DNA of 64,000 nt from an uncultured Solirubrobacterales bacterium (GTDB taxonomy: Bacteria; Actinomycetota; Thermoleophilia; Solirubrobacterales; 70-9). The notes beneath the pieces are model-generated. The model worked only from the letters and a program-made list of their open reading frames with translations, did not search any database and was not told where the DNA came from. Of the stretch, positions 11,605 through 61,976 are shown one piece after another. Made by a program: the position numbers and the translations under genes. The stretch's first letter is position 1, and the number at the start of each line of letters is the position of its first letter. Where the stretch lies: positions 723,536-787,535 of the forward strand of contig OY969422.1 in the NCBI GenBank assembly GCA_963699215.1, read 5' to 3'.

Positions 11605-11737
11605 CTCAGGCCGCAAGCTAGCACCCAGACAGCCGACAGGAATTTGGGATGAAAGTGCGAAAGGCCACAAAATGTTGGTTTTTTGTAAGCATCCGCCCGG
11701 GCAATCGTCTACACTGCCCGCCGTTCCGAACAACCGA

Positions 11738-11870
11738 AACGCCGAATCCCGCAAGCCAGGAGGCGCAGCGGGAACGGGGGAACCACGTTTTCGGGGCTAA
11801 CCCGCTCGACATAGGGCGGGGGCGCAGGCTCCTTTTCGCGCTAGCCCGACAGCTAACCCCGTAGGCCGAC
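11738..11870 (+). promoter_or_regulatory. c-di-AMP riboswitch (ydaO/yuaA class) in the 5' leader of the NlpC/P60 gene
   Basis: Blocks characteristic of the class are visible: GCCGAATCC, ACGGGGGAACCAC, CGGGGCTAACCC, TAGGGCG and GCCCGACAGCTAACCCCGTAGGCC. They are followed by the SD GAAGGAG and a TTG start at 11884. The boundaries are approximate. Confidence 0.75.
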
Positions 11871-11883
11871 GAAGGAGATCGGT

Positions 11884-22000: not shown

Positions 22001-22046
22001 TGGAGGCCGCTTCAACCGGCGTCGGGCGGTTCCTCCCCACGAATGA

Positions 22047-22078
22047 ACGTTTGTGCCCCCTATAGGGGGCACAAACGT
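22047..22078. repeat. Perfect 32-nt palindrome ACGTTTGTGCCCCCTA|TAGGGGGCACAAACGT; terminator-like
   Basis: 16 perfectly paired positions, immediately downstream of the mutase gene (stop at 22092). A related copy lies at 1293-1325. Confidence 0.7.
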
Positions 22079-22091
22079 CCATCGTCCGGGG

Positions 22092-26090: not shown

Positions 26091-28084
26091 GCGGCCGCCG
26101 GAGCCTCGCCGGCACTGCGTTGCTCGCCGTGGCGATGGCCTGCATCGCCACGCCCGCCGCCGCCATCCCGCCACGGCCCGCCGACCTCCGGGTCAGGGGC
26201 GGTGAGGACACCTGGCACCGGGAGAACCGCTTCATGCTCGACTGGGCCGCCCCTTCGACTGGCGAGGGTCCCCCGCTCGCCGCCACTCGCTACCGCATCC
26301 GCGATCCGCAGGGCGCGGCGATCGACGAGAGCCGGATCGCCTGGGTGAGCGACGGGATCGCCGCCGTGACCCTGCCCAGCCGGCCGGGTGCCTACACCGC
26401 CGAGGTCTGGTTCGAGGACACCGCGGGGGTACAGGGACCGGCGGCCACCGCCCAACTGCGCTTCGACGACGTCAGGCCGGCGGCGATCGAGCCCGAGCCG
26501 GTCCCCGCGTGGATCGGGCGCACCTCCTTCCCGCTGCGAATCCGGCTCGGCCACCCGGCCGGCCCGGCGCCCGTCTCCGGCATCCGCGGCTACGCCGTGA
26601 CGATCGACGCCGTTCCAGGTGGGAATCCCTGCGCCGCCGCAGACAGCTGCAGCGACGCCGAGACCGCGTTGCGGGGCGGCATCGGCGACGACGAGCTGAC
26701 GGTCGCGGCGCTACCGGAGGGGACCAGCTACCTGCACGCCGTCGCCGTCTCCGGCTCGGGGATGAAGTCGCCCACGAGCGGCCAAGCCGTGCTTCGCGTC
26801 GACACCACCGACCCGATCGTGCGCCTGGCCGGGGCGCCGGGCGACTGGACGAACCGCGCCGTCGCGCTCACCGCCAGCGCCACCGACGCCAGCGCTGGGA
26901 TGGAGCCGGACGGCGACAGCCCGCCGCCGTTCACCGCGATCCGGATCGACGGCGGCGCCCCGATCGTCGCGCCGGGCGACTCCGTCTCCCTCGACGCGAT
27001 CGCCGAGGGAGCGCACCGAATCGCCTACTACGCGCGCGACGCGGCCGGCAACGTCGCCGACGGGGGCGGCGCCAACGGCCTCGCCAACCGGCCGCCGCAA
27101 ACCACCTGGGTGCGAGTCGACCGCACCCCGCCCAACCTCGCCTTTGCCAACTCCCAGGACCCCTCCGACCCCGACCTGCTGCGGGTACGGGTAGGCGACT
27201 CGCTCTCGGGCGCCGACACCTCACGCGGACGGATAGGCGTGCGCCTCGTCGGCTCGGGCGACCGCTTCGAGCCCCTTCCAGCCGCACCGCCGGCGGGCGG
27301 CGAGCTGCGGGCTCGCTGGGACTCGGACGCCTATCCGGCGGGGGAGTACGAGTTCCGGGCCGTCGGCTACGACTCTGCCGGCAACCGGGCGGACACGACG
27401 CAGCGCCGGAACGGCGAGGCGATGGTCCTCTCGAATCCGCTCAAGACGACGACGGCCGTGCGCACGGCCTTTCCCCGCCGGGGAACGCTGCGAGCCGTCC
27501 CCTACGGCCGCGGCGTCCGCTTCGAGGGCGGGCTCGCCACCGGCTCGGGCTCGCCCCTGGGCGGCATGCCGGTGCGGATCGTCGAGCGCTTCGCCGCCGG
27601 CGCCCAGCCGCCGGAGCGTGCGACGGCCGCGTGGACCGGGCCGGGCGGCGGGTTCTCGATCCGCCTGGCGCCCGGTCCGAGCCGGACGATCTCGGTCGGC
27701 TTCGACGGGAGCCCGAGCCTGGCCCGCGCGGCCGGTCGCACCCTGCGGCTCCAGGTGCGGAGCCGGGTCCGCCTGCGGGCCTCCTCGGCGCAGGCCACGG
27801 TCGGCGGCGCACCGCTCGTGTTCCGTGGACGGGTCGACGCGGCGCCCGGGGAGATCCCGGGCGCCGGCAAGTCGGTCCAGCTGCAGTTCCGCCTTCCCGG
27901 CCTGCCCTGGGCGGAGTTCCGCACGATCCAGACCGATCGCCTCGGCCGCTTCCGCCATGCCTACCGCTTCAGCGACGACGACAGCCGCGGCGTCCGCTTC
28001 CAGTTCCGCGCCTACGCGACCGCGCAAGACGACTGGCCCTACGAGCCGGCGGGCTCGCGGCCAGTCGTCGTGCGCGGTCGCTGA
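26087..28084 (+). CDS. Secreted 665-aa hypothetical protein (Ig/FN3-like beta-rich repeats suspected)
   Basis: GTG overlaps the sigma-gene stop (GTGA). Signal peptide LLAVAMACIATPAAA. I recognise no catalytic motif. Confidence 0.6.
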   Translation: MSGRRSLAGTALLAVAMACIATPAAAIPPRPADLRVRGGEDTWHRENRFMLDWAAPSTGEGPPLAATRYRIRDPQGAAIDESRIAWVSDGIAAVTLPSRPGAYTAEVWFEDTAGVQGPAATAQLRFDDVRPAAIEPEPVPAWIGRTSFPLRIRLGHPAGPAPVSGIRGYAVTIDAVPGGNPCAAADSCSDAETALRGGIGDDELTVAALPEGTSYLHAVAVSGSGMKSPTSGQAVLRVDTTDPIVRLAGAPGDWTNRAVALTASATDASAGMEPDGDSPPPFTAIRIDGGAPIVAPGDSVSLDAIAEGAHRIAYYARDAAGNVADGGGANGLANRPPQTTWVRVDRTPPNLAFANSQDPSDPDLLRVRVGDSLSGADTSRGRIGVRLVGSGDRFEPLPAAPPAGGELRARWDSDAYPAGEYEFRAVGYDSAGNRADTTQRRNGEAMVLSNPLKTTTAVRTAFPRRGTLRAVPYGRGVRFEGGLATGSGSPLGGMPVRIVERFAAGAQPPERATAAWTGPGGGFSIRLAPGPSRTISVGFDGSPSLARAAGRTLRLQVRSRVRLRASSAQATVGGAPLVFRGRVDAAPGEIPGAGKSVQLQFRLPGLPWAEFRTIQTDRLGRFRHAYRFSDDDSRGVRFQFRAYATAQDDWPYEPAGSRPVVVRGR

Positions 28085-29521: not shown

Positions 29522-32461
29522 ATGCCTGTCCTAGCCGACTCCCAAGAGCGCGCGATCGGGCACCGCTCCGGACCGCTCCTGCTGACCGGCGAGGCGGGGA
29601 CCGGCAAGACCGAGGTCCTGGCGCAGCGCTTCGAGCGACTGGTCGCAGAGGGGACCGCGCCGGAGCGGATCCTCGTCCTGGCGTCGTCGCAAGCCACCGC
29701 GCAGCGGCTGCGCGAACGGGTCGACGTGCTCCTCGACCGCCCCCTGGAAGAGCTCTGGGTGGGAACCTGGGAGAAGCAGTGCGAGCGGCTTCTGCGCGAG
29801 CACTCGACCGCCGCCGGCCTCGATCCGTTCTTCGCGGTCCTCGGTCCGGCGGAGCGCCTGGCGCTGCTGCTCGACCGTATCGACGACCTGCCCCTGCGCG
29901 GCCATGAGATCCGCGGCAATCCGGCGGGCCTGCTTGCCCGCCTGCTCGAGCGGACCGACGAGGTCAAGGCCGGCTCGGACCCACCCGACCCCGAGCTGGC
30001 CGAGCTGATCGCCGCCCACGACCGCATCCTCGCCGCCACCTGCAGCCTCGACCGCGCCGACGTCTACCTGGCCCTGAGCAAGCTCTTCGACGAGGCCCCC
30101 GACGTTCGCCTTCGGGTCGCTTCTCGCTTCGAGTACCTGATGGTCGACGAGCTGGAGGACACGACCGCTGCTCAACGGGCGATCCTCGTGGCGCTGTCCC
30201 AGGACAACCCGAATCAGCTGTACGCGCTGGGCACAGGTGAGGGGTTGGGGGCGTCCAGCTGGGCGCTGGGTTTTTCGCCAGGTGGGGATGCCTCACACGT
30301 GGAGCCGGCGGGGCGAAAAACAGGACGCCGCGCCCAGCCGGACACCCCCAACCCCTCACCTGTGCCCACGGTCGAACTTACCCGCCAGTTCCGGCAGCCT
30401 GAGACGAAGTTCTGGAGATGTACGAACGAGCGGGCCCAGGCACAGGCGGTTGCGCGGGAAGCCGAGCATCTTGTGGCGGCGGGAACGGCCCCCGAAGAGA
30501 TATGCGTGCTGGTGGACGACCCCACGCGTGGCGGGCCCGTGGCTGCCGCGATGGAAGAGCGGGGCATCCCGTTCCATATGTCTGGCCCGGCGGCGCTGTT
30601 CCAGCGACCGGAGGTCCGGGATGCGATCGCGTGGCTGCGCGTTCTTGCCGACCCGGGCGACTCCGCGGCGGCAGCACGCGCGCTGACCCGCCCCCCGGTC
30701 GAGCTGCGCTCGGCTGACTTGGCGCGGCTGACGACGATCTCGCGGCGGCGCAAGCTCGACCTGGTGTCGGCCTGCGAGGCGGCGCTGGAGAGCCCCCAGA
30801 TATCTCCCGAGGCGCGCGAGCGGATCCAGTCCTTCCTCAAGCTCTACGGAACGGCGTCGGCGGTGCTGGAGGAACGCCGCGCCGACGTCTTCGTGCGACG
30901 GCTGATCGAGGCGGTGGGGTTGCGCCGGCAGCGGCTCTTCGCCGCCCAGCCCGAGGTGGCGGAGCGGCTGCTCGGACTGTCGCGCCTGGCCGAGCTCGCG
31001 GCTGCCTGGGCGCGACGCGAACCCAACGGCTCGACGCGCGATTTCGTCCGCCATCTCACCGCCGTCGCCGACGCCGGGGTTGAGCCGGCCGACGTGGCCG
31101 AGCCGCCGGCGCGCGCGGCGGTGCAGGGACACGTGCGCGAGGCGATCAAGGGAATGGAGTTCGAGCACGTCTTCTTGTTGGGGATGGAGCGCGACGAGGG
31201 AGCTGAGCGGATCGGTCGCCCGGCTCGGCTGGGCCTCGTCCTCTCCCGGGTGGAGCGGGGCGACGAAGGCGAGAGCCGCGCCTCGGAGCTCTACGCCGCG
31301 GCGTTGTCGGAGGCGGACGCCGACGAGGAACCCCACGCCGAGGAGCTGTTCGGCCCGGCCGAGGGGCTGCACGCGACCTACCGCCTGCTGCGCGAGGAGG
31401 TGCTGGAGGCGTCTTGGAAAGCGGGCCGGGAGCTGTCGGAGCCGCGGCTGGACACCGCTGTCGACGTCAACCGCGCGATCGCCCGCTACCTGGAGCTGCT
31501 GAAGCTGGCGGCCCTCGCCCAGCGGCCCGGTGACGAGGCGACCGCGGAGGCGATCGACGCGATCAACGGGCTGCTGCGCCAGGTCGCGACGCCCGAGCAG
31601 CAGGCCGAGCTCGACGCCTCCTCGCTCGACTCCTACCTGCTCGGCTCCGAGCGGGAGCGCGAGGGGCGCCAGCGGCTGATCGCGGCGCGCCAGGAGCCCT
31701 CGCTGGAGGCCTTCCTGCCGCGCCGCGGCGACGGCTCGCTCAGCCTCTCCGCCTCCGACCTCGACCTCTATCTGACCTGCCCGCTGAAGTACAAGTTCGC
31801 GCGCGTCTTCTCCATCCCCCAGGAGCCGACGATCAACCAGCGCTTCGGCATCCTCATCCACAACGTGCTGGAGCGTTTCCACAAAGAAGATGAGGGCGAG
31901 GGCGAGGAAGACGGGCTGCGGCGCCTGATGTCGTTGTTCGAGACGGGCTGGCGGCGCAGCGGCTTCGGCAACAGCGACGACGAGCTGCAGTTCCGCGACC
32001 GGGCGCGGAAGGCGATGCGCCTCTACTGGGAGCGGGAGCGCGACTCCGACGGCGAGCCGGTCTGGCTGGAGCGGAAGTTCGACATCCGGATCGGCGAGCA
32101 CCACGTGCGCGGCCGGGTCGACCGGGTCGACCGCCTGCCGGGCGGGGGCCACGAGCTGATCGACTACAAGACGGGCGAGCGCAAGAGCGAAGCCCAGCTG
32201 GAGAGCGACCTGCAGCTGGCGCTCTACCGGCTCGCCGCTCGCGAGGCCTGGGAGCTAGAGGCCGATACCGGCAGCTACTACTACGTGCTGGACGCCGAGA
32301 AGGTCGCCGCGCCGAGCAAGCCCGACGACGCCGAGCGGGTCGAGCGCACCGTGCTGCAGGTCGGCGAGGGCGTCCTCGGCCAGGACTTCGAGCCACGCCC
32401 CTCGCCAACCGTCTGCGGCTGGTGCGACTACCGCCTGATCTGCCCAGCGGCAGAGAGCTAA
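29522..32461 (+). CDS. UvrD-like helicase fused to a RecB/AddB-type PD-(D/E)XK nuclease with a Cys cluster (AdnA/AddB-like)
   Basis: Walker A GEAGTGKT and DExx MVDELED. C-terminal nuclease motifs LTCPLKYKF, ELIDYKTG, QLALYRLA and CGWCDYRLICP. It carries a 45-codon in-frame palindromic insertion. Confidence 0.8.
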   Translation: MPVLADSQERAIGHRSGPLLLTGEAGTGKTEVLAQRFERLVAEGTAPERILVLASSQATAQRLRERVDVLLDRPLEELWVGTWEKQCERLLREHSTAAGLDPFFAVLGPAERLALLLDRIDDLPLRGHEIRGNPAGLLARLLERTDEVKAGSDPPDPELAELIAAHDRILAATCSLDRADVYLALSKLFDEAPDVRLRVASRFEYLMVDELEDTTAAQRAILVALSQDNPNQLYALGTGEGLGASSWALGFSPGGDASHVEPAGRKTGRRAQPDTPNPSPVPTVELTRQFRQPETKFWRCTNERAQAQAVAREAEHLVAAGTAPEEICVLVDDPTRGGPVAAAMEERGIPFHMSGPAALFQRPEVRDAIAWLRVLADPGDSAAAARALTRPPVELRSADLARLTTISRRRKLDLVSACEAALESPQISPEARERIQSFLKLYGTASAVLEERRADVFVRRLIEAVGLRRQRLFAAQPEVAERLLGLSRLAELAAAWARREPNGSTRDFVRHLTAVADAGVEPADVAEPPARAAVQGHVREAIKGMEFEHVFLLGMERDEGAERIGRPARLGLVLSRVERGDEGESRASELYAAALSEADADEEPHAEELFGPAEGLHATYRLLREEVLEASWKAGRELSEPRLDTAVDVNRAIARYLELLKLAALAQRPGDEATAEAIDAINGLLRQVATPEQQAELDASSLDSYLLGSEREREGRQRLIAARQEPSLEAFLPRRGDGSLSLSASDLDLYLTCPLKYKFARVFSIPQEPTINQRFGILIHNVLERFHKEDEGEGEEDGLRRLMSLFETGWRRSGFGNSDDELQFRDRARKAMRLYWERERDSDGEPVWLERKFDIRIGEHHVRGRVDRVDRLPGGGHELIDYKTGERKSEAQLESDLQLALYRLAAREAWELEADTGSYYYVLDAEKVAAPSKPDDAERVERTVLQVGEGVLGQDFEPRPSPTVCGWCDYRLICPAAES
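30229..30367. repeat. 139-bp imperfect palindromic element embedded in frame in the helicase gene
   Basis: GGGCACAGGTGAGGGGTTGGGGG...CCCCCAACCCCTCACCTGTGCCC, with nested inner pairings (CTGGGCGC/GCGCCCAG and GTTTTTCGCC/GGCGAAAAAC). It is translated as TGEGLGASSWALGFSPGGDASHVEPAGRKTGRRAQPDTPNPSPVP. Confidence 0.8.
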
Positions 32462-32467
32462 GGGTCA

Positions 32468-32622
32468 GCAGGAAGCCCGGTTGTCCTCCGGGTGAATTGA
32501 TGTCGCACGCGCGCTCCGCGCGCTTAGCGACGGTGTTTGTGCGCGGCTAACGCCGCACAGAAAACAGATTGCATATCGCGGCCTTCGGCCACATTCCCCC
32601 GGAGGACAACCGGGCTTCCTGC
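32468..32622. repeat. Structured palindromic element, family A copy 1 (candidate ncRNA or structure-dependent repeat)
   Basis: A 25-bp perfect closing stem GCAGGAAGCCCGGTTGTCCTCCGGG / CCCCGGAGGACAACCGGGCTTCCTGC surrounds a core of about 104 nt with three internal hairpins. Confidence 0.75.
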
Positions 32623-32690: not shown

Positions 32691-32840
32691 GAAGAAGCGG
32701 CGATCCACTCTCGCGGGAATGTCGCGAAGCGGCGATATGCAATCTGGTGATTGCGCGGCTTCAGCCGCGCACCAACTCAGTCGCTAAGCCCCAAAGGGGC
32801 GTGCGACATCAATTCCCGCGAGAGTGGACCGCCGCTTCTC
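32691..32840. repeat. Structured palindromic element, family A copy 2, inverted relative to copy 1
   Basis: Closing stem GAAGAAGCGGCGATCCACTCTCGCGGGAAT / ATTCCCGCGAGAGTGGACCGCCGCTTCTC. The reverse complement of the core aligns block by block with 32493-32596. Confidence 0.75.
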
Positions 32841-42257: not shown

Positions 42258-42434
42258 ATGCCGTTCGTCCACATCCACTGGTTCGAGGGCCGCAGCGACG
42301 AGCAGAAGGCCGAGATCGCGAAGCGGATCGAAGCGGCGCTGGTCGAGGTGGCCGGCGCCGCCCCCGAGCACTGCTGGGTGAAGTTCTCCGACTCGCCGAA
42401 AACCGACTTCATCATCGGCGAGCGGGCTGAGTAG
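42258..42434 (+). CDS. 4-oxalocrotonate tautomerase family protein (58 aa)
   Basis: Too short for the ORF track. MPFVHIHWFEGRSDEQKAEIAKRIEAALVEVAG, with the catalytic Pro at position 2. Confidence 0.65.
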   Translation: MPFVHIHWFEGRSDEQKAEIAKRIEAALVEVAGAAPEHCWVKFSDSPKTDFIIGERAE

Positions 42435-42533
42435 GGGCCGGGTGCCCCTCCCCGGAGGCCGTTGCGCAGCTGATCGTTGGTGCAGGGTTGGAGTGTGGTT
42501 CCCGGAGCCTCCGGGGGAGGGGCACCCGGCCCC
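42434..42533. repeat. Structured palindromic element, family B copy 1
   Basis: A 25-bp stem GGGGCCGGGTGCCCCTCCCCGGAGG / CCTCCGGGGGAGGGGCACCCGGCCCC around a 49-nt core beginning CCGTTGCGCAGCTGATCG. It fills the spacer between the convergent tautomerase and ileS genes. Confidence 0.8.
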
Positions 42534-42536
42534 GTT

Positions 42537-45500
42537 TCAGGCGCGGGTGATGATGACGTGGAGGTCGCGGCCGTCGAGCTTGACGGTGGCGCCATCCGCG
42601 GCGTCGTAGGCGACCGAGGTCGCGAGGACCTCGCCGGCTACGTAGGACTCGTGGGCGCGGGCGGCCCCGAGCAGCTCCTCGTCGCCGCCGAGGCCGAGCT
42701 CGATCCGGTCGGTGATCTCCAGGCCCGCCTCTTTGCGCGCGTTCTGGACGGCGTGGACGATCTCGCGGGCGAACCCCTCGCGGCGCAGCTCGTCGTCGAG
42801 CTCTAGCTGCAGGGCGACGGCGTGTCCGGCCTCCGCCTCGACCTCGTAGCCCTCCAGCGGCTGCAGGGAGAGAGTCAGCTCGTCGGCGGCAGAGGGTGTG
42901 CTCGTCGCCGTCGACGTTGATGCCGACCTCGCCACCATCGGCCATCACCGCGGCCACGTGGACTGGGTCGAGCGCCTCGACCGCGGCGGCGACCTGCGGC
43001 ATCCGCTTGCCGAAGCGGGGGCCGAGCGAGCGGTAGTTGGGCTTGACCGCGTAGCTGACCAGCTCTGCCTCCTCGGTGACGAAGTCGAGCTCCTTGACGT
43101 TGAGCTCGGCCTTGACCAGCTCGGCGCGGGCCGAGATCGCCGCGCGCTCGGCGTCGTTGGCGACGATCACGGCGCGGCGCAGCGGCTGGCGCACCTTGGC
43201 CTTCGCCTGGGCGCGGGCGGCGCGGCCGAGCTCGACGGTGAGCCGCACCGCCTCCATCGCCGCCTCCAGCTCGGGGTCGGCAAGCGCCGGGTCGGGCTCG
43301 GGGAAGTCGCGCAGGTGGACCGAGTCGGGCAGCTCGCCGAGGTCCTCCCCCTCGCCCCCGGCGAGGTTGAGGTGGATCTCGTCGGCGAGGAAGGGGGTGA
43401 ACGGCGCGAGCAGCGCCGCCGTCTCCAGCAGGCAGTGGCGCAGGGTCGCGAAGGCGGCCCGGTCGCCCTCCCAGAAGCGGCGGCGCGAGAGGCGCACGTA
43501 CCAGTTCGAGAGCTGCTCGACGAACTCGGCGATCGCGCGGCCGGCGGCGGTGCAGTCGAAGTCGTCCATGTGCTCGCGCACCGTCGCCACCGTCGCCTGC
43601 AGCCGCGAGAGCGCCCAGCGGTCGAGGTCGTCGCTCGGCTCCGGCGCGCCGGTGAAATCTCCCGGCGTCGAGGTTCTCGGCGTTCGCGTAGAGGACCCAG
43701 AAGGAGTACGTGTTCCAGAGCGTGAGCAGGAACTGGCGCACCGATTCGCCCACGGTGTCGACCGAGAAGCGGTAGCCCGACCAGGGCTGCTGCGCGGTCA
43801 GGTAGTACCAGCGGAAGGCGTCGGCGCCGTGGGCGGCGATCACGTCCCAGGGCTCGACCACGTTGCCCTTGCTCTTCGACATCTTCTGCCCCTCGGGGTC
43901 GAGGATCAGGCCGAGGCAGACGCAGTTGCGGTAGCTGGAGGTGTCGAAGAGCAGGGTCGACTCGGCGAGCAGCGTGTAGAACCAGCCGCGGGTCTGGTCG
44001 ATCGCCTCGCAGATGAAGTCGGCGGGGAAGCGCTCCTCGAACAGCTCCTCGTTCTCGAACGGGTAGTGGAACTGGGCGAAGGGCATCGCGCCGCTGTCGT
44101 ACCAGGTGTCGATCACCGACTCGACCCGCCGCATCTCGCCGCCGCACCGCTCGCAGTCGAGCGTGACCTCGTCGATGTAGGGGCGGTGCAGGTCGGCGGG
44201 GACCTCGCCTCTGGCGCGCTCGCGCAGCTCGGCGACCGAGCCGGCGCAGAAGCGGCCGTCGCAGGCCTCGCTCGTGCACTCCCAGATCGGCAGCGGCGTC
44301 CCCCAGTAGCGGTCGCGCGAGAGCGCCCAGTCGACGTTGTTCTCCAGCCACTTGCCGAAGCGGCCGTGCTTGATGTGCTCGGGGTGCCAGCCGATCTCCT
44401 CGTTGTTGGCGAGCAGCTGGTCGCGCGCCCGCGAGGTGGCGACGTACCAGCTCGACTTGGCGTAGTAGAGGAGCGGCGTGCCGCAGCGCCAGCAGTGCGG
44501 GTAGGCGTGCTCGTAGACCTGCTCGCGGAAGAGCAGGCCGCGCCCGGCGAGGTCGTCGATCAACGCCCGGGTCACCTCCGGGTCCTTGACGAACCTGCCC
44601 TCGAAGCCGACCACCCGCCTGTCGAAGTGCCCGTCCGGTTCGACCGGGTTGTAGAGGGTGCCGTGCGAGGTGGGGTCGAAGATCCCGTTCTCGGCCGCGA
44701 CCGAGTAGTCGTCCTCGCCGAAGGCCGGAGCGATGTGGACGAGGCCGGTCCCGTCCTCGGTGGTGACGAACTCGCCGGCAACTACGGGGAAACCTCCAGC
44801 CGGCCGATCATCGAGCGCGAAGATCGGGCCTTCGTAGCGGCGGTCGACCAGCTCGCTGCCGGGGAAGCGGTCGGTTATCTCGATGCCCTCGCCGAGCACC
44901 TTCTCGACCAGCGGCTCGGCGAGGATCAGGATCTCGTCTTCGACCTTCGCCTTGACGTAGGTGACCTCCGGCGCAACCGCGACCGCCTCGTTGCCGGGCA
45001 GGGTCCACGGCGTCGTCGTCCAGACCAGCAGCGACTCGCCCGCCGCGGAGCCATCCTCCGCCAGCAACGGGAAGCGCACGTATATGGAGGGGTCCTCGAC
45101 GTCCTGGTAGCCGAGCGCCACCTCGTGCGAGGAGAGCGCGGTGCCGCAGCGCGGGCAGTAGGGGACGACCTTGTGGCCCTCGTAGAGCCGCTCGTCGTCC
45201 CAGAGCTTGCGCAGCGACCACCAGACCGACTCGATGTACTCGTCGTCGAGGGTGACGTAGGGATCGTCGAGGTCGATCCAGAAGCCGATCCGCTCGGTCA
45301 GCCGGTTCCAGTCCTCGACGTACTCGAAGACCGACTCGCGGCAGCGGCGGTTGAACTCGGCGATCCCGTACTCCTCGATCTCCTGCTTGGAGGAGATGCC
45401 GAGCTCCTTCTCCACCTCGAGCTCGACCGGCAGCCCGTGACAGTCCCAGCCGGCCTTGCGCGGCACCCGGTAGCCGCACATCGTGCGGTAGCGGGGGTAG

Positions 45501-45706
45501 ATGTCCTTGAAGACGCGGGAGAGGACGTGGTGGGAGCCGGGACGGCCGTTGGCGGTCGGCGGCCCCTCGTAGAAGCTCCAGACCTCGGCGCCCTCGCGGT
45601 TGGCGAGCGAGCGGTGGAAGACGTCGCGCTCGCGCCAGCGTGCCAGTACCCGCTCCTCCATCTCGGGGAAGGCCTGCTTGGGGTCGACTGGCTCGAAGCC
45701 GGGCAT
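42537..45706 (-). CDS. ileS: Isoleucine--tRNA ligase, interrupted by two frame breaks as assembled
   Basis: HIGH (PTANGRPGSHHVLS) and KMSKS (GQKMSKSKGN) motifs. The protein continues across track ORFs 42875..45706, 42412..43590 and 42537..42938, with breaks near 43657-43669 and 42888-42896. The 3170-nt length minus 2 gives 1056 codons. Confidence 0.9.
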
Positions 45707-52408: not shown

Positions 52409-53719
<1,311 letters not shown>

Positions 53720-53722
<3 letters not shown>

Positions 53723-53824
53723 GGATCAGGAGTCCCTCCCGCGGAGGCTCAAGGGACCACGCCTGAACCCTCCGCCCGCGATCAGCTGCGCAACGGTCTC
53801 CGCGGGAGGGACTCCTGATCCTTA
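53720..53824. repeat. Structured palindromic element, family B copy 2 (opposite orientation)
   Basis: TAAGGATCAGGAGTCCCTCCCGCGGAG / CTCCGCGGGAGGGACTCCTGATCCTTA. The arms contain the stop codons of both convergent genes. The reverse complement of the core matches the 42459-42507 core. Confidence 0.8.
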
Positions 53825-55267
53825 CCCCTGAAGCGTTATGAAGCGCTCCTCCGTTAGCTCTAGGACTGCGAAAGCGGGACCCTCGCGGGTGTTGCCGGAG
53901 TCCTTGACGCCGCCGTAGGGCATCTGGTCGGCGCGGAAGGTCGGGACCTCGTTGATCAGGACGCCGCCAAACTCGAGCGTCGCGGCCGCCTCTAATCCGC
54001 GACCCATGTCGCGGGTGAAGACGCCGGCCTGAAGGCCGAACTTGGAGTCGTTCGCCAGCCGCAGCGCCTCGCCGAAGTCCGCGTAGCGATCGATCGTCGC
54101 CACCGGGCCGAAGACCTCCTCGCACCAGACCTTGGCCTCGCGCGGTGGGGCGCCGAGCAGGGTCGGAGCGAGGCAGCGTCCCTCGTCGACCAGCTCGCCC
54201 CCGGTCAGCAGCTCGGCCCCGCCGGCGACCGCCTCGTCGATCCACTGCTTGACCCGGTCGCGGTCACTGGGCGAGATCAGCGGCCCGACGTCGGTCTCGG
54301 GGTCGAGCGGGTCGCCGACCCGAAGGCTCCCGGTGTTGGCGACGAGGCGCTCGGTGAAGGCGTCGGCGACGTCCTCGTGGACGAGGATCCGCTGGATCGA
54401 GATGCAGCTCTGCCCCGCGTGGGAGAAGGCGTGCAGCTTGGCTTTGTCGGCCGCGATCTCCCAGTCGCCATCGGAGTGGACGATCAGCGGCGCGTTGGAG
54501 CCCAGCTCGAGGTTGACCTTCTTGTGCGGGACGCGGCTGCGGATCCCCCAGCCGACCTTGGCCGAGCCGGTGAAGCTGAGCGCCCCGGTCAGCTCGTGCT
54601 CGACGATCGCGTTGCCGACCTCCGAGCCCGGGCCCGGGACGACGCTGAGCCAGCCCTGCGGCAGGCCCGCCTCGACCAGGATCGCGGCCAGCTTCAGCGC
54701 TGAGATCGGCGTCTGCCCGGCTGGCTTGAGGACGACCGCGTTGCCGGCGGCAATCGCCGGGCCGAGCTTGTGCGCAACCAGATTGAGCGGGAAGTTGAAG
54801 GGGCTGATCGCGCCGACGACGCCGAAGGGGACGCGCAACATCACGCCGAGCTTGCCGGCGCCGGCCGCCGATGCCTCCATCGGCACCGTGCCGCCGCTCA
54901 GCTTGCGCGCCTCGACCGCGGAGAAGGTGAGCGTGTCGACGCAGCGGGCGGCCTCCGCCTGCGCGGTCTTCAGCGGCTTGCCCGCCTCAGCGGCGATCGT
55001 CAGCGCCAGATCGTCGAGCCGCTCAGCGGTCAGCTCGGCGGCCTGGTCGAGCACCGCTGCCCGCTCGTGCTGAGGGAAGTCGCCCGACTCGAAGGCGGCA
55101 CGGGCAGCAATCGCACAGCGGTCCACGAGCCCTGCGTCGCCCTGCGCGACCCGGCCGACGACGGTGCCGTCATACGGGCTCTTTACCTCAGCCCACTCGC
55201 CCGTCCCGGTCCACTCGCCAGCGGCGAGGAGCTCGTGGTCGACCGCTTGCACCGTCTGCGTCGCCAT
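53822..55267 (-). CDS. NAD(P)-dependent aldehyde dehydrogenase
   Basis: 481 aa; FTGSAKVG, ELGSNAP and the catalytic GQSCISIQR. Confidence 0.9.
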   Translation of the reverse strand: MATQTVQAVDHELLAAGEWTGTGEWAEVKSPYDGTVVGRVAQGDAGLVDRCAIAARAAFESGDFPQHERAAVLDQAAELTAERLDDLALTIAAEAGKPLKTAQAEAARCVDTLTFSAVEARKLSGGTVPMEASAAGAGKLGVMLRVPFGVVGAISPFNFPLNLVAHKLGPAIAAGNAVVLKPAGQTPISALKLAAILVEAGLPQGWLSVVPGPGSEVGNAIVEHELTGALSFTGSAKVGWGIRSRVPHKKVNLELGSNAPLIVHSDGDWEIAADKAKLHAFSHAGQSCISIQRILVHEDVADAFTERLVANTGSLRVGDPLDPETDVGPLISPSDRDRVKQWIDEAVAGGAELLTGGELVDEGRCLAPTLLGAPPREAKVWCEEVFGPVATIDRYADFGEALRLANDSKFGLQAGVFTRDMGRGLEAAATLEFGGVLINEVPTFRADQMPYGGVKDSGNTREGPAFAVLELTEERFITLQG

Positions 55268-55282: not shown

Positions 55283-55411
55283 GGAGGGCAGGGGTTGCCT
55301 CGACGATGCCTCGCGAAGCGGCCCCGGCAAGGTGATTCCAGCCGCGAAGCGGCACCAGATTCCACCGCCGAAGGCGGTGGTGGGCACTCGTCGAGGCGAC
55401 CCCTGCCCTCC
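55283..55411. repeat. Structured palindromic element related to family A
   Basis: A 24-bp stem GGAGGGCAGGGGTTGCCTCGACGA / TCGTCGAGGCGACCCCTGCCCTCC with one T-G pair. The core holds three hairpins with GAA loops and shares TCGCGAAGCGGC, GGTGATT and GCGGCACCA with 32721-32775. Confidence 0.7.
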
Positions 55412-61911: not shown

Positions 61912-61976
61912 GGCACGGGGTTGCAGCGACGCCGGGGCGGGGCCCAGAGCCCGCCCCGGCGTCGCTGCAGGTGCCC
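61911..61976. repeat. Long near-perfect hairpin between convergent genes, with arms related to those of 55283-55411 and 30229-30367
   Basis: A 20-bp perfect stem TGCAGCGACGCCGGGGCGGG / CCCGCCCCGGCGTCGCTGCA, with an outer GGGCAC/GTGCCC pair and a short loop. The 5' arm GGGCACGGGGTTGCAGCGACG resembles GGGCAGGGGTTGCCTCGACG. Confidence 0.7.

Follow-up and report, generated by a model that had tools for sequence, protein, structure and literature searches.

A Dispersed Family of Long Hairpin Repeats at Gene 3′ Ends in Solirubrobacterales

Two long palindromes with a common core, here termed elements A and B, lie between convergent genes in a 64,000-nucleotide (nt) stretch of DNA from an uncultured Solirubrobacterales bacterium (assembly GCA_963699215.1, contig OY969422.1, positions 723,536 to 787,535 of the forward strand). 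This whole stretch is referred to as the window, and positions given without a locus name are counted from its first letter. An earlier inspection of the letters alone (the sequence-only reading) had offered two explanations for a conserved core inside seemingly locus-specific arms, namely, a small element that inserts into the tips of pre-existing terminator hairpins or a motif kept paired by compensatory change. Which of these, if either, accounts for the two palindromes? We find that A and B are copies of an undescribed, dispersed, lineage-specific family of ∼106-nt hairpin repeats. The family is most likely an mRNA 3′-end module that belongs broadly with the REP, ERIC, and Correia elements and is unusual in its design, the distinctive feature of which is a conserved loop carried on a compensated 27-bp stem that is free to vary.

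A lineage-specific hairpin-repeat family

Element A occupies positions 42434 to 42533 (+ strand) and element B positions 53720 to 53824 (− strand), the core of B being the reverse complement of that of A. The 18-mer CCGTTGCGCAGCTGATCG occurs twice as an exact match in the window, at 42459 to 42476 (+) and at 53779 to 53796 (−); with up to three mismatches allowed, three matches are present versus 0.17 expected, a number reached by 0/100 shuffles. Global alignment of A with B confirmed the further common blocks AGGGTT and GTGGT that had been pointed out before, together with GAGCC and an inner stem, CCCTCCC(S)CGGAG/CTCCG(S)GGGAGGG, that is common to both elements and differs symmetrically on both arms. 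Each element forms one long hairpin on either strand, whether folded as RNA (−70 to −76 kcal/mol; z, −6.7 to −8.8) or as DNA (z, −7.8 and −8.5).

The 18-mer was found at ≥120 loci, that is, at least 120, when one genome per species was scanned, and at least 120 loci were likewise returned from metagenomes by a structured pattern that fixes a 14-mer (described below) and GAGC, the metagenome copies being ascertained thereby. Among the 18-mer matches listed, 35 loci and the two window copies carry the 18-mer within a long hairpin; the remaining listed matches were rejected as chance occurrences inside coding sequence of unrelated bacteria. The carriers of the 35 hairpin copies, which were examined as 8-kb pieces, are all metagenome-assembled genomes (MAGs) labeled as Solirubrobacterales or unclassified within Actinomycetota, and several are complete chromosomes of 2.5 to 2.9 Mb with four or more copies each. 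A covariance model, R1, was built from an alignment of 35 copies (A1). It matches A at 42430 to 42537 (97.8 bits; E = 5.7e-17; RNA fold of A, −76.1 kcal/mol, z = −6.7), and the covariance-model match to B spans 53718 to 53826 on the − strand (109 bits; E = 3.2e-19; fold z = −7.6). Six copies without the exact 18-mer were added by the covariance model to the 37 genuine exact copies. Finally, a census by nhmmer over 1.8 Mb of collected sequence identified 181 copies, of which 175 are unique and full-length; all come from Solirubrobacterales or unclassified Actinomycetota MAGs and from soil metagenomes. These searches reveal a large family, clearly not a core confined to two loci with identical arms in relatives.

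No known family accounts for these copies. At the gathering threshold, Rfam 15 matched only a cyclic di-AMP riboswitch in the whole window (ydaO/yuaA leader at 11730 to 11882 [+]; 70.4 bits; E = 2.6e-14; full model covered), and permissive scans of both loci returned only generic microRNA-precursor hairpins at 28 to 34 bits versus thresholds of 80 to 150. Plasmid and phage records searched with blastn contain no match to the element, and a search of the literature turned up nothing on the motif or on palindromes of Solirubrobacterales. The sole viral-contig match to the structured pattern (L241) was rejected as a chance match, lying within a coding region and without stems. One metagenome contig, L180 (Ga0137405_1322817), includes a 175-bp perfect inverted duplication and mirrored open reading frames (ORFs); since it is probably an assembly artifact, its two element copies are not to be counted as independent.

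The family consensus reads GGGGGGGGnCGGGTGCCCCTCCCCCnGAGG, followed by CCGTYGCGCAGCTG AnCCGnnnnnnnGGGTTCnnnCGTGGnTnCnT GAGCC and then by TCCGnGGGAGGGGCACCCGnCCCCCC. Its stem comprises 27 pairs, and palindromes typically start with GGAGGG and finish with CCCTCC. In A1, 94.3% of the stem cells are paired and 25/27 pairs show changes on both sides (197 cells), values that 0/500 shuffles reach; slid controls are 42 to 58% paired. When mutual information with average product correction was computed for all column pairs over the 175 copies, every stem pair stood out and nothing else did. The conjecture that the motif is kept paired by compensatory change is therefore strongly supported for the long stem, and for the long stem only. 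Watson-Crick pairs make up 91.1% of 4,712 stem cells, G·T/T·G pairs 1.4% (67/4,712), and A·C/C·A pairs 1.8% (84/4,712). The other mismatches (5.7%) are mostly accounted for by one pyrimidine·pyrimidine mismatch that recurs in about half of the copies, five pairs below the apex. A·C/C·A pairs become wobbles when the other strand is read, and G·T/T·G pairs are not favored over them. Since compensation is strictly Watson-Crick with no G·U excess, the stem by itself provides no pointer to RNA; judged as a candidate noncoding RNA supported by covariation, the family has the long stem, with neither a G·U preference nor a supported core structure. Conservation drops from the apex outward, variability being highest at the outer stem positions. 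The 5′ arm of A, GGGGCCGGGTGCCCCTCCCCGGAGGC (42434 to 42459), matches the consensus arm, its outer part, GGGGCCGGGTGCCCC, corresponding to GGGnCGGGTGCCCC in the family; the 3′ arm (42508 to 42533) has an extra G bulged at the position of the recurrent mismatch.

The apex is ∼51 nt long. A 49-nt conserved core had been described from A and B. Across the family, invariance shrinks to 14 nt (CCGTYGCGCAGCTG) and GAGC(C), which are invariant also in 11 copies that match neither search pattern. In A, the invariant loop segment CCGTTGCGCAGCTG lies at 42459 to 42472 and is (nearly) invariant in the 175 copies, the 18-mer extending further to 42476; the following part of the apex (42473 to 42504) is variable by per-column counts, with AGGGTT and GTGGT semiconserved only and no covariation; and GAGCC marks the 3′ apex-stem junction at 42505 to 42509. 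The corresponding segments of B are CCGTTGCGCAGCTG at 53783 to 53796 (−), within its 18-mer, and GAGCC at 53746 to 53750 (−; GGCTC on the + strand). Of the two palindromic sites thought to be conserved in the core, CAGCTG is conserved across the family and the GATC of the window copies is not.

An internal GGG...CCC hairpin had also been proposed, and it lacks covariation or compensatory support: the mutual information over the 175 copies detects no covariation within the apex. A CAGCT/AGC pairing suggested by RNAalifold was rejected for the same lack of covariation. The apical region folds worse than shuffles on both strands (z = +0.87) and, being less structured than shuffles, is apparently held open. 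Between loci, the identity of copies reaches 90% at most, with a median of ∼60%, and no group of young copies stands out. That the 14-mer has stayed invariant while the rest drifted to ∼60% identity indicates purifying selection for sequence-specific recognition of the open loop.

Position and orientation relative to genes

Genes converge on both A and B, and each palindrome fills its spacer from stop codon to stop codon. As had been noted for A, the spacer runs from the stop of a 65-amino-acid tautomerase gene (PF01361) to that of an isoleucyl-tRNA synthetase (IleRS)-like gene (identified with Pfam). The last base of the tautomerase stop, TAG at 42432 to 42434 (+), is the first base of the palindrome, and the IleRS-like stop (TGA on the − strand, 42537 to 42539) is 3 nt off it; the core of A has the same sense as the tautomerase gene that precedes it. 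Element B lies between a class II fumarase/aspartase gene and an aldehyde dehydrogenase gene (Pfam), both of whose TAA stops are within the palindrome, at 53720 to 53722 (+) and, as its mirror, at 53822 to 53824 (−), respectively. The core of B has the same sense as the aldehyde dehydrogenase gene. The IleRS-like gene (− strand, 42537 to 45706) is itself split into two overlapping frames, 42875 to 45706 (943 amino acids, tRNA-synt_1) and 42537 to 42938 (133 amino acids, DUF5915), an apparent frameshift or sequencing error near 42875 to 42938.

The same arrangement characterizes the family. The gene reading into the 5′ side has its stop codon at a median distance of ∼10 nt from the first paired base, and this codon and the palindrome often overlap. 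Among single copies with both flanks readable, 28 have gene ends on both sides (i.e., convergent genes), 59 abut a gene end on the 5′ side only (sense), and 12 do so on the 3′ side only (p = 1.3e-8). Many loci in the copy set are orthologues of one another; after collapse into 67 locus clusters by flank similarity with the elements masked, the numbers are 13 for both sides, 26 for the 5′ side only, and 7 for the 3′ side only (p = 0.0013). Close pairs of copies, with gaps of 1 to 269 nt, are likewise oriented: 23 pairs face each other (→ ←), none point apart (← →; p = 2e-7), and two others run in the same direction.

This location, the G+C-rich hairpin right after the stop codon, the filling of convergent spacers, and the stability of the hairpin on both strands recall intrinsic bidirectional terminators. 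The elements differ from these in having no T-run, a 27-bp stem, and a 51-nt loop with conserved sequence, where canonical loops have 3 to 8 nt. In the flank profile of 173 copies, T accounts for 9 to 14% at positions +1 to +5 after the stem and A for 7 to 14% just upstream of it, so neither a T-run behind the stem nor an A-run ahead of it is present, and a scan for hairpin-plus-T-run terminators reports neither A nor B. We therefore consider it highly improbable that the copies are ordinary factor-independent terminators, or decaying repeats, in which the shared core is a relic of descent, the more so as an invariant 14-mer set against ∼60% identity elsewhere requires purifying selection on sequence. 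Between 40000 and 57000 of the window, no intergenic hairpin-plus-T-run terminator was found, and the 3′ ends there are thus occupied by long hairpins. A canonical T-run terminator, GGGCGGGCGCCGGGCCGGCGCCCGCTTTGCTTT, is present at L193:276-402, in a convergent spacer where L153 carries an element and L127 none; such organisms can thus use ordinary terminators.

Evolution at orthologous sites

The proposal that the mobile unit is the core with its inner stem only, inserting into the loop of locus-specific terminator hairpins whose outer arms represent the target, can be judged from orthologous sites. It would account for the fall of conservation from the apex outward and for several other core families (see below) being carried on similar GCCCCTCC-type arms. 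The outer arms, however, share a family consensus, which A matches, and the odd arm of B proves to be derived. The orthologue of B on a soil contig (L125:7972-8079) has consensus-like arms (TAGGGGTCGGGTGTCCC...), from which B differs at four arm positions, 4/4 of them mirrored on the other arm. The supposedly locus-specific arm of B is thus a diverged family arm. Because both stops lie in the mirrored outer arms, the stops of the two convergent genes changed together, being TAG in L125 and TAA in the window.

Two empty orthologous sites likewise give no support for a pre-existing target hairpin. The spacer of L127 is 5 nt long where L153 carries an element, so the whole 27-bp stem is absent; L033 lacks an element that is present in L228, and the loop of the small hairpin visible by eye there is not where the filled element is located. 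One site in the window does fit the prediction of short hairpins that resemble the outer arms: at 1336 to 1363, there is only a 12-bp hairpin, GGTAGGCGCACC TGCA GGCGCACCTACC, where L151 (L151:2148-2257) and L240 (L240:6673-6779) have a full element at the same site, and its arms correspond to the outer ones of the L151 element (GGTAGGGCGC...). This hairpin may be either an “empty” target or a remnant of apex deletion. Similarly, L193:1472-1553 has arms homologous to those of L127:1446-1554 and a different, shorter apex of 24 nt. Deletion of the apex explains both short hairpins equally well. Nowhere does a duplication or fixed junction mark an insertion boundary, and insertion into the tips of pre-existing terminators, which these data do not support as a general rule, is improbable. 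At the L151 site, TGGTAG forms the end of each of the two convergent genes, within the palindrome.

The tautomerase/ileS site shows a further kind of change. A single copy is present there in the window, in L100:7590-7697, and in L117:905-1011, and a reversed single copy with nearly identical arms is present in L015:4370-4477 and L020:7240-7347; a facing pair occupies the tautomerase/ileS spacer at L016:789-1109, and another (L231:2014-2363) is next to the ileS orthologue. These variants suggest either that the apex flips in place or that one copy of a pair has been lost. Orthologous loci whose arms are nearly identical and whose orientations are opposite (L117 versus L015/L020; L135 versus L154) are also what would be expected of an invertible DNA switch, in which the apex would be flipped in a programmed way between two expression states, with the arms as its inverted repeats. 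Nevertheless, orthologous single-copy comparisons mostly keep the orientation (100 kept, 15 reversed), the flips are seen between species and not within a population, no recombinase gene was seen nearby in the 8-kb pieces, and to our knowledge a 51-nt invertible segment would be far below the size of known invertons. A programmed switch is accordingly very improbable indeed.

Across 173 copies, no recurrent direct repeat flanks the maximal palindromes as a target-site duplication would, and the TA ends of a few copies coincide with stop codons. We propose that the family has a long history of mainly vertical descent, interrupted at times by gains, losses, and deletions of the apex.

A candidate mRNA 3′-end module

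The position after stop codons, the sense bias, and the facing pairs argue that the strand matters relative to transcription and thereby for a role at mRNA 3′ ends; the wobble-free, mirrored evolution of the stem and the in-place flips argue that pairing is upheld by a DNA-level process rather than by pair-by-pair selection on RNA. These two roles are compatible. We tentatively propose that each copy is a transcribed 3′-end hairpin module in which the loop is a sequence-specific recognition site and the arms are kept paired by DNA-level, hairpin-templated correction. Given its position and orientation bias, the element would form the extreme 3′ end of the transcript of the upstream gene. As RNA, its 27-bp G+C-rich stem would then be a highly stable hairpin by which this end is defined or protected, whether through factor-dependent termination, by blocking 3′ exonucleases, or as a substrate of RNase III; as no U-tract is present, the role of the stem at the 3′ end is one that we infer. 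The open apical loop, with its conserved segments, would display CCGUYGCGCAGCUG and GAGC as a docking site for a putative trans-acting protein or RNA. In the DNA, the arms may be kept complementary by arm-to-arm conversion or by quasi-palindrome template switching. Both processes are known to cause mutations in quasi-palindromes. Such correction would produce joint change of the two arms, no wobble intermediates, and an occasional flip of the apex, and concerted arm changes and flips are indeed seen at the orthologous sites.

Several observations weigh against this proposal. Selection on a sense RNA alone should favor G·U pairs, and the absence of a G·U excess among the stem mismatches means that there is no RNA signature. 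The absence of a T-run in either direction shows that the element is not a canonical intrinsic terminator. Approximately 17 to 21% of single copies are antisense to their sole adjacent gene end, and the apex is reversed in the 15 orthologous comparisons mentioned above. Genes were called by a home-made rule based on codon-position G+C, not by a gene finder. By the codon-periodicity strand call, no confident copy is located between divergent genes; inspection of ORFs, on the other hand, places L031:5604-5713 apparently between divergent ORFs, and because of this exception, copies in divergent spacers are described here as rare rather than as never occurring.

Some of the same evidence would suit the main rival, a REP-like DNA element, in which the palindrome extrudes or folds in single-stranded DNA, the 14-mer in the loop is bound by a DNA-binding protein, and any effects on RNA are secondary. 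The candidate binders are a transposase that once spread the family, of the RAYT/Y1 type or another, and a nucleoid or topology factor at work at the meeting points of convergent transcription. In keeping with such an element, stem evolution is strictly Watson-Crick and strand symmetric with no wobble excess, the two arms evolve together, the apex is reversed in situ, and presence/absence polymorphism is found at orthologous sites. Moreover, an extragenic location at 3′ ends with inverted pairs is shared with REP/BIME and REPINs, and a loop kept single stranded is reminiscent of the hairpin origins that HUH enzymes nick in their single-stranded loops. A symmetric DNA structure, however, does not predict the sense bias of 59:12 (26:7 per locus) or the 23:0 facing pairs. 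The lack of near-identical copies at different loci and of target-site duplications leaves no sign of recent mobility, and a loop that is most conserved together with ends that are most variable is the opposite of what REPs and MITEs (miniature inverted-repeat transposable elements) exhibit. In addition, no transposase was seen adjoining copies in the 8-kb pieces, and the 1.4-kb segment between two distant copies in L031, considered as a place for one, encodes a flavin adenine dinucleotide (FAD) oxidoreductase. On balance, a primarily DNA-based role is possible but rather unlikely.

The proposed 3′-end module has counterparts among known repeats, none of which it matches fully. The REP/BIME elements of proteobacteria are extragenic, lie at 3′ ends, often in inverted pairs, and can affect the stability of mRNA 3′ ends; REPs are 20 to 40 nt long with a conserved stem sequence. 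The present family resembles REP/BIME and REPINs in being extragenic, multicopy hairpins at gene 3′ ends and in convergent spacers, often as inverted pairs. It differs from these elements in that the 27-bp stem varies with compensation while the conserved sequence lies in the 51-nt loop, the spacing of pairs varies from 1 to 269 nt, and near-identical copies are absent; moreover, no RAYT was identified in the 8-kb pieces. ERIC/IRU (∼127 nt) and the Correia elements of Neisseria (100 to 155 nt) are imperfect palindromes in transcribed intergenic regions, occur in either orientation, and have orientation-dependent effects on mRNA, and Correia hairpins are cut by RNase III. The repeats described here share with them the form of an imperfect palindrome of ∼100 nt. 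Correia elements, however, are bounded by conserved terminal repeats of 26 bp and by a TA duplication; both features are missing here, and the hypervariable, compensated arms and the different phylum set the family apart from ERIC and Correia elements. No sequence relationship to either is apparent, no direct comparison with their consensus sequences having been made.

Two other comparisons are instructive. As in lambda sib-type and other RNase III-processed stems, a long duplex 3′ of the coding region would be an RNase III substrate controlling the upstream mRNA; in contrast to sib, which is a single regulatory site, the family is a genome-wide repeat. MITEs are likewise short and noncoding with inverted-repeat ends and comprise several families with different interiors, but here there is no target-site duplication, the termini are least conserved, and there is no sign of recent bursts.

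The family is also not the only one of its general build. At least seven other recurrent families in the same organisms, none of them in Rfam, combine a locus-specific perfect stem of 22 to 39 bp with a family-specific conserved apical core. Four copies of such families are located in the window (30228 to 30368, 32468 to 32622, 32693 to 32839, and 55283 to 55411), and further long hairpins lie at 28016 to 28081 and 61922 to 61969. Family X1 has the core TTTTTCGCC...GGCGAAAAA; family X2, which consists of GAAT, three small hairpins, and ATTC, forms an inverted pair in the window; and X5 is the third family present there. Two of the other families give a hint, from small numbers, of an orientation bias relative to the adjacent gene end. 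Separately, a perfect 40-nt palindrome, ATGAACGTTTGTGCCCCCTA followed by TAGGGGGCACAAACGTCCAT, is found at 22043 to 22082, with the half-site TAGGGGGCACAAA again at 1308 to 1320; it may be a protein-binding site or another repeat.

The shared chassis suggests that this lineage has its own general scheme for the construction of gene 3′ ends. A far-reaching version of this idea, which we regard as doubtful, is that small-genome Solirubrobacterales carry at least eight families of 3′-end cassettes with perfectly paired, locus-specific stems of 22 to 31 bp and family-specific apical modules (putative docking sites or small RNAs), the upkeep of the stems and the flipping of the apex both resulting from a hairpin-templated DNA process. 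If that were true, the cassette system could largely replace canonical terminators in the lineage and would represent either an unrecognized organization of gene 3′ ends or a new hairpin mobile element that leaves no target duplication.

For the family of A and B itself, the arms of the palindrome provide a clean natural case of concerted evolution, with 4/4 substitutions mirrored, including those in the stops of two genes. Perfect covariation here does not imply RNA structure, which calls for caution in covariation-based RNA discovery. The 14-mer offers a bait for finding a partner protein or RNA, and should the partner prove to be a transposase, the family would instead amount to a new REP-like system, one belonging to Actinomycetota. 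If the proposed 3′-end module is real, an abundant and poorly known soil lineage would mark many of its gene ends with a long hairpin and a fixed 14-nt loop, not with a hairpin plus U-tract. The family would then provide a handle on how transcripts are ended or stabilized in high-G+C Actinomycetota, where terminators without U-tracts are a long-standing puzzle.

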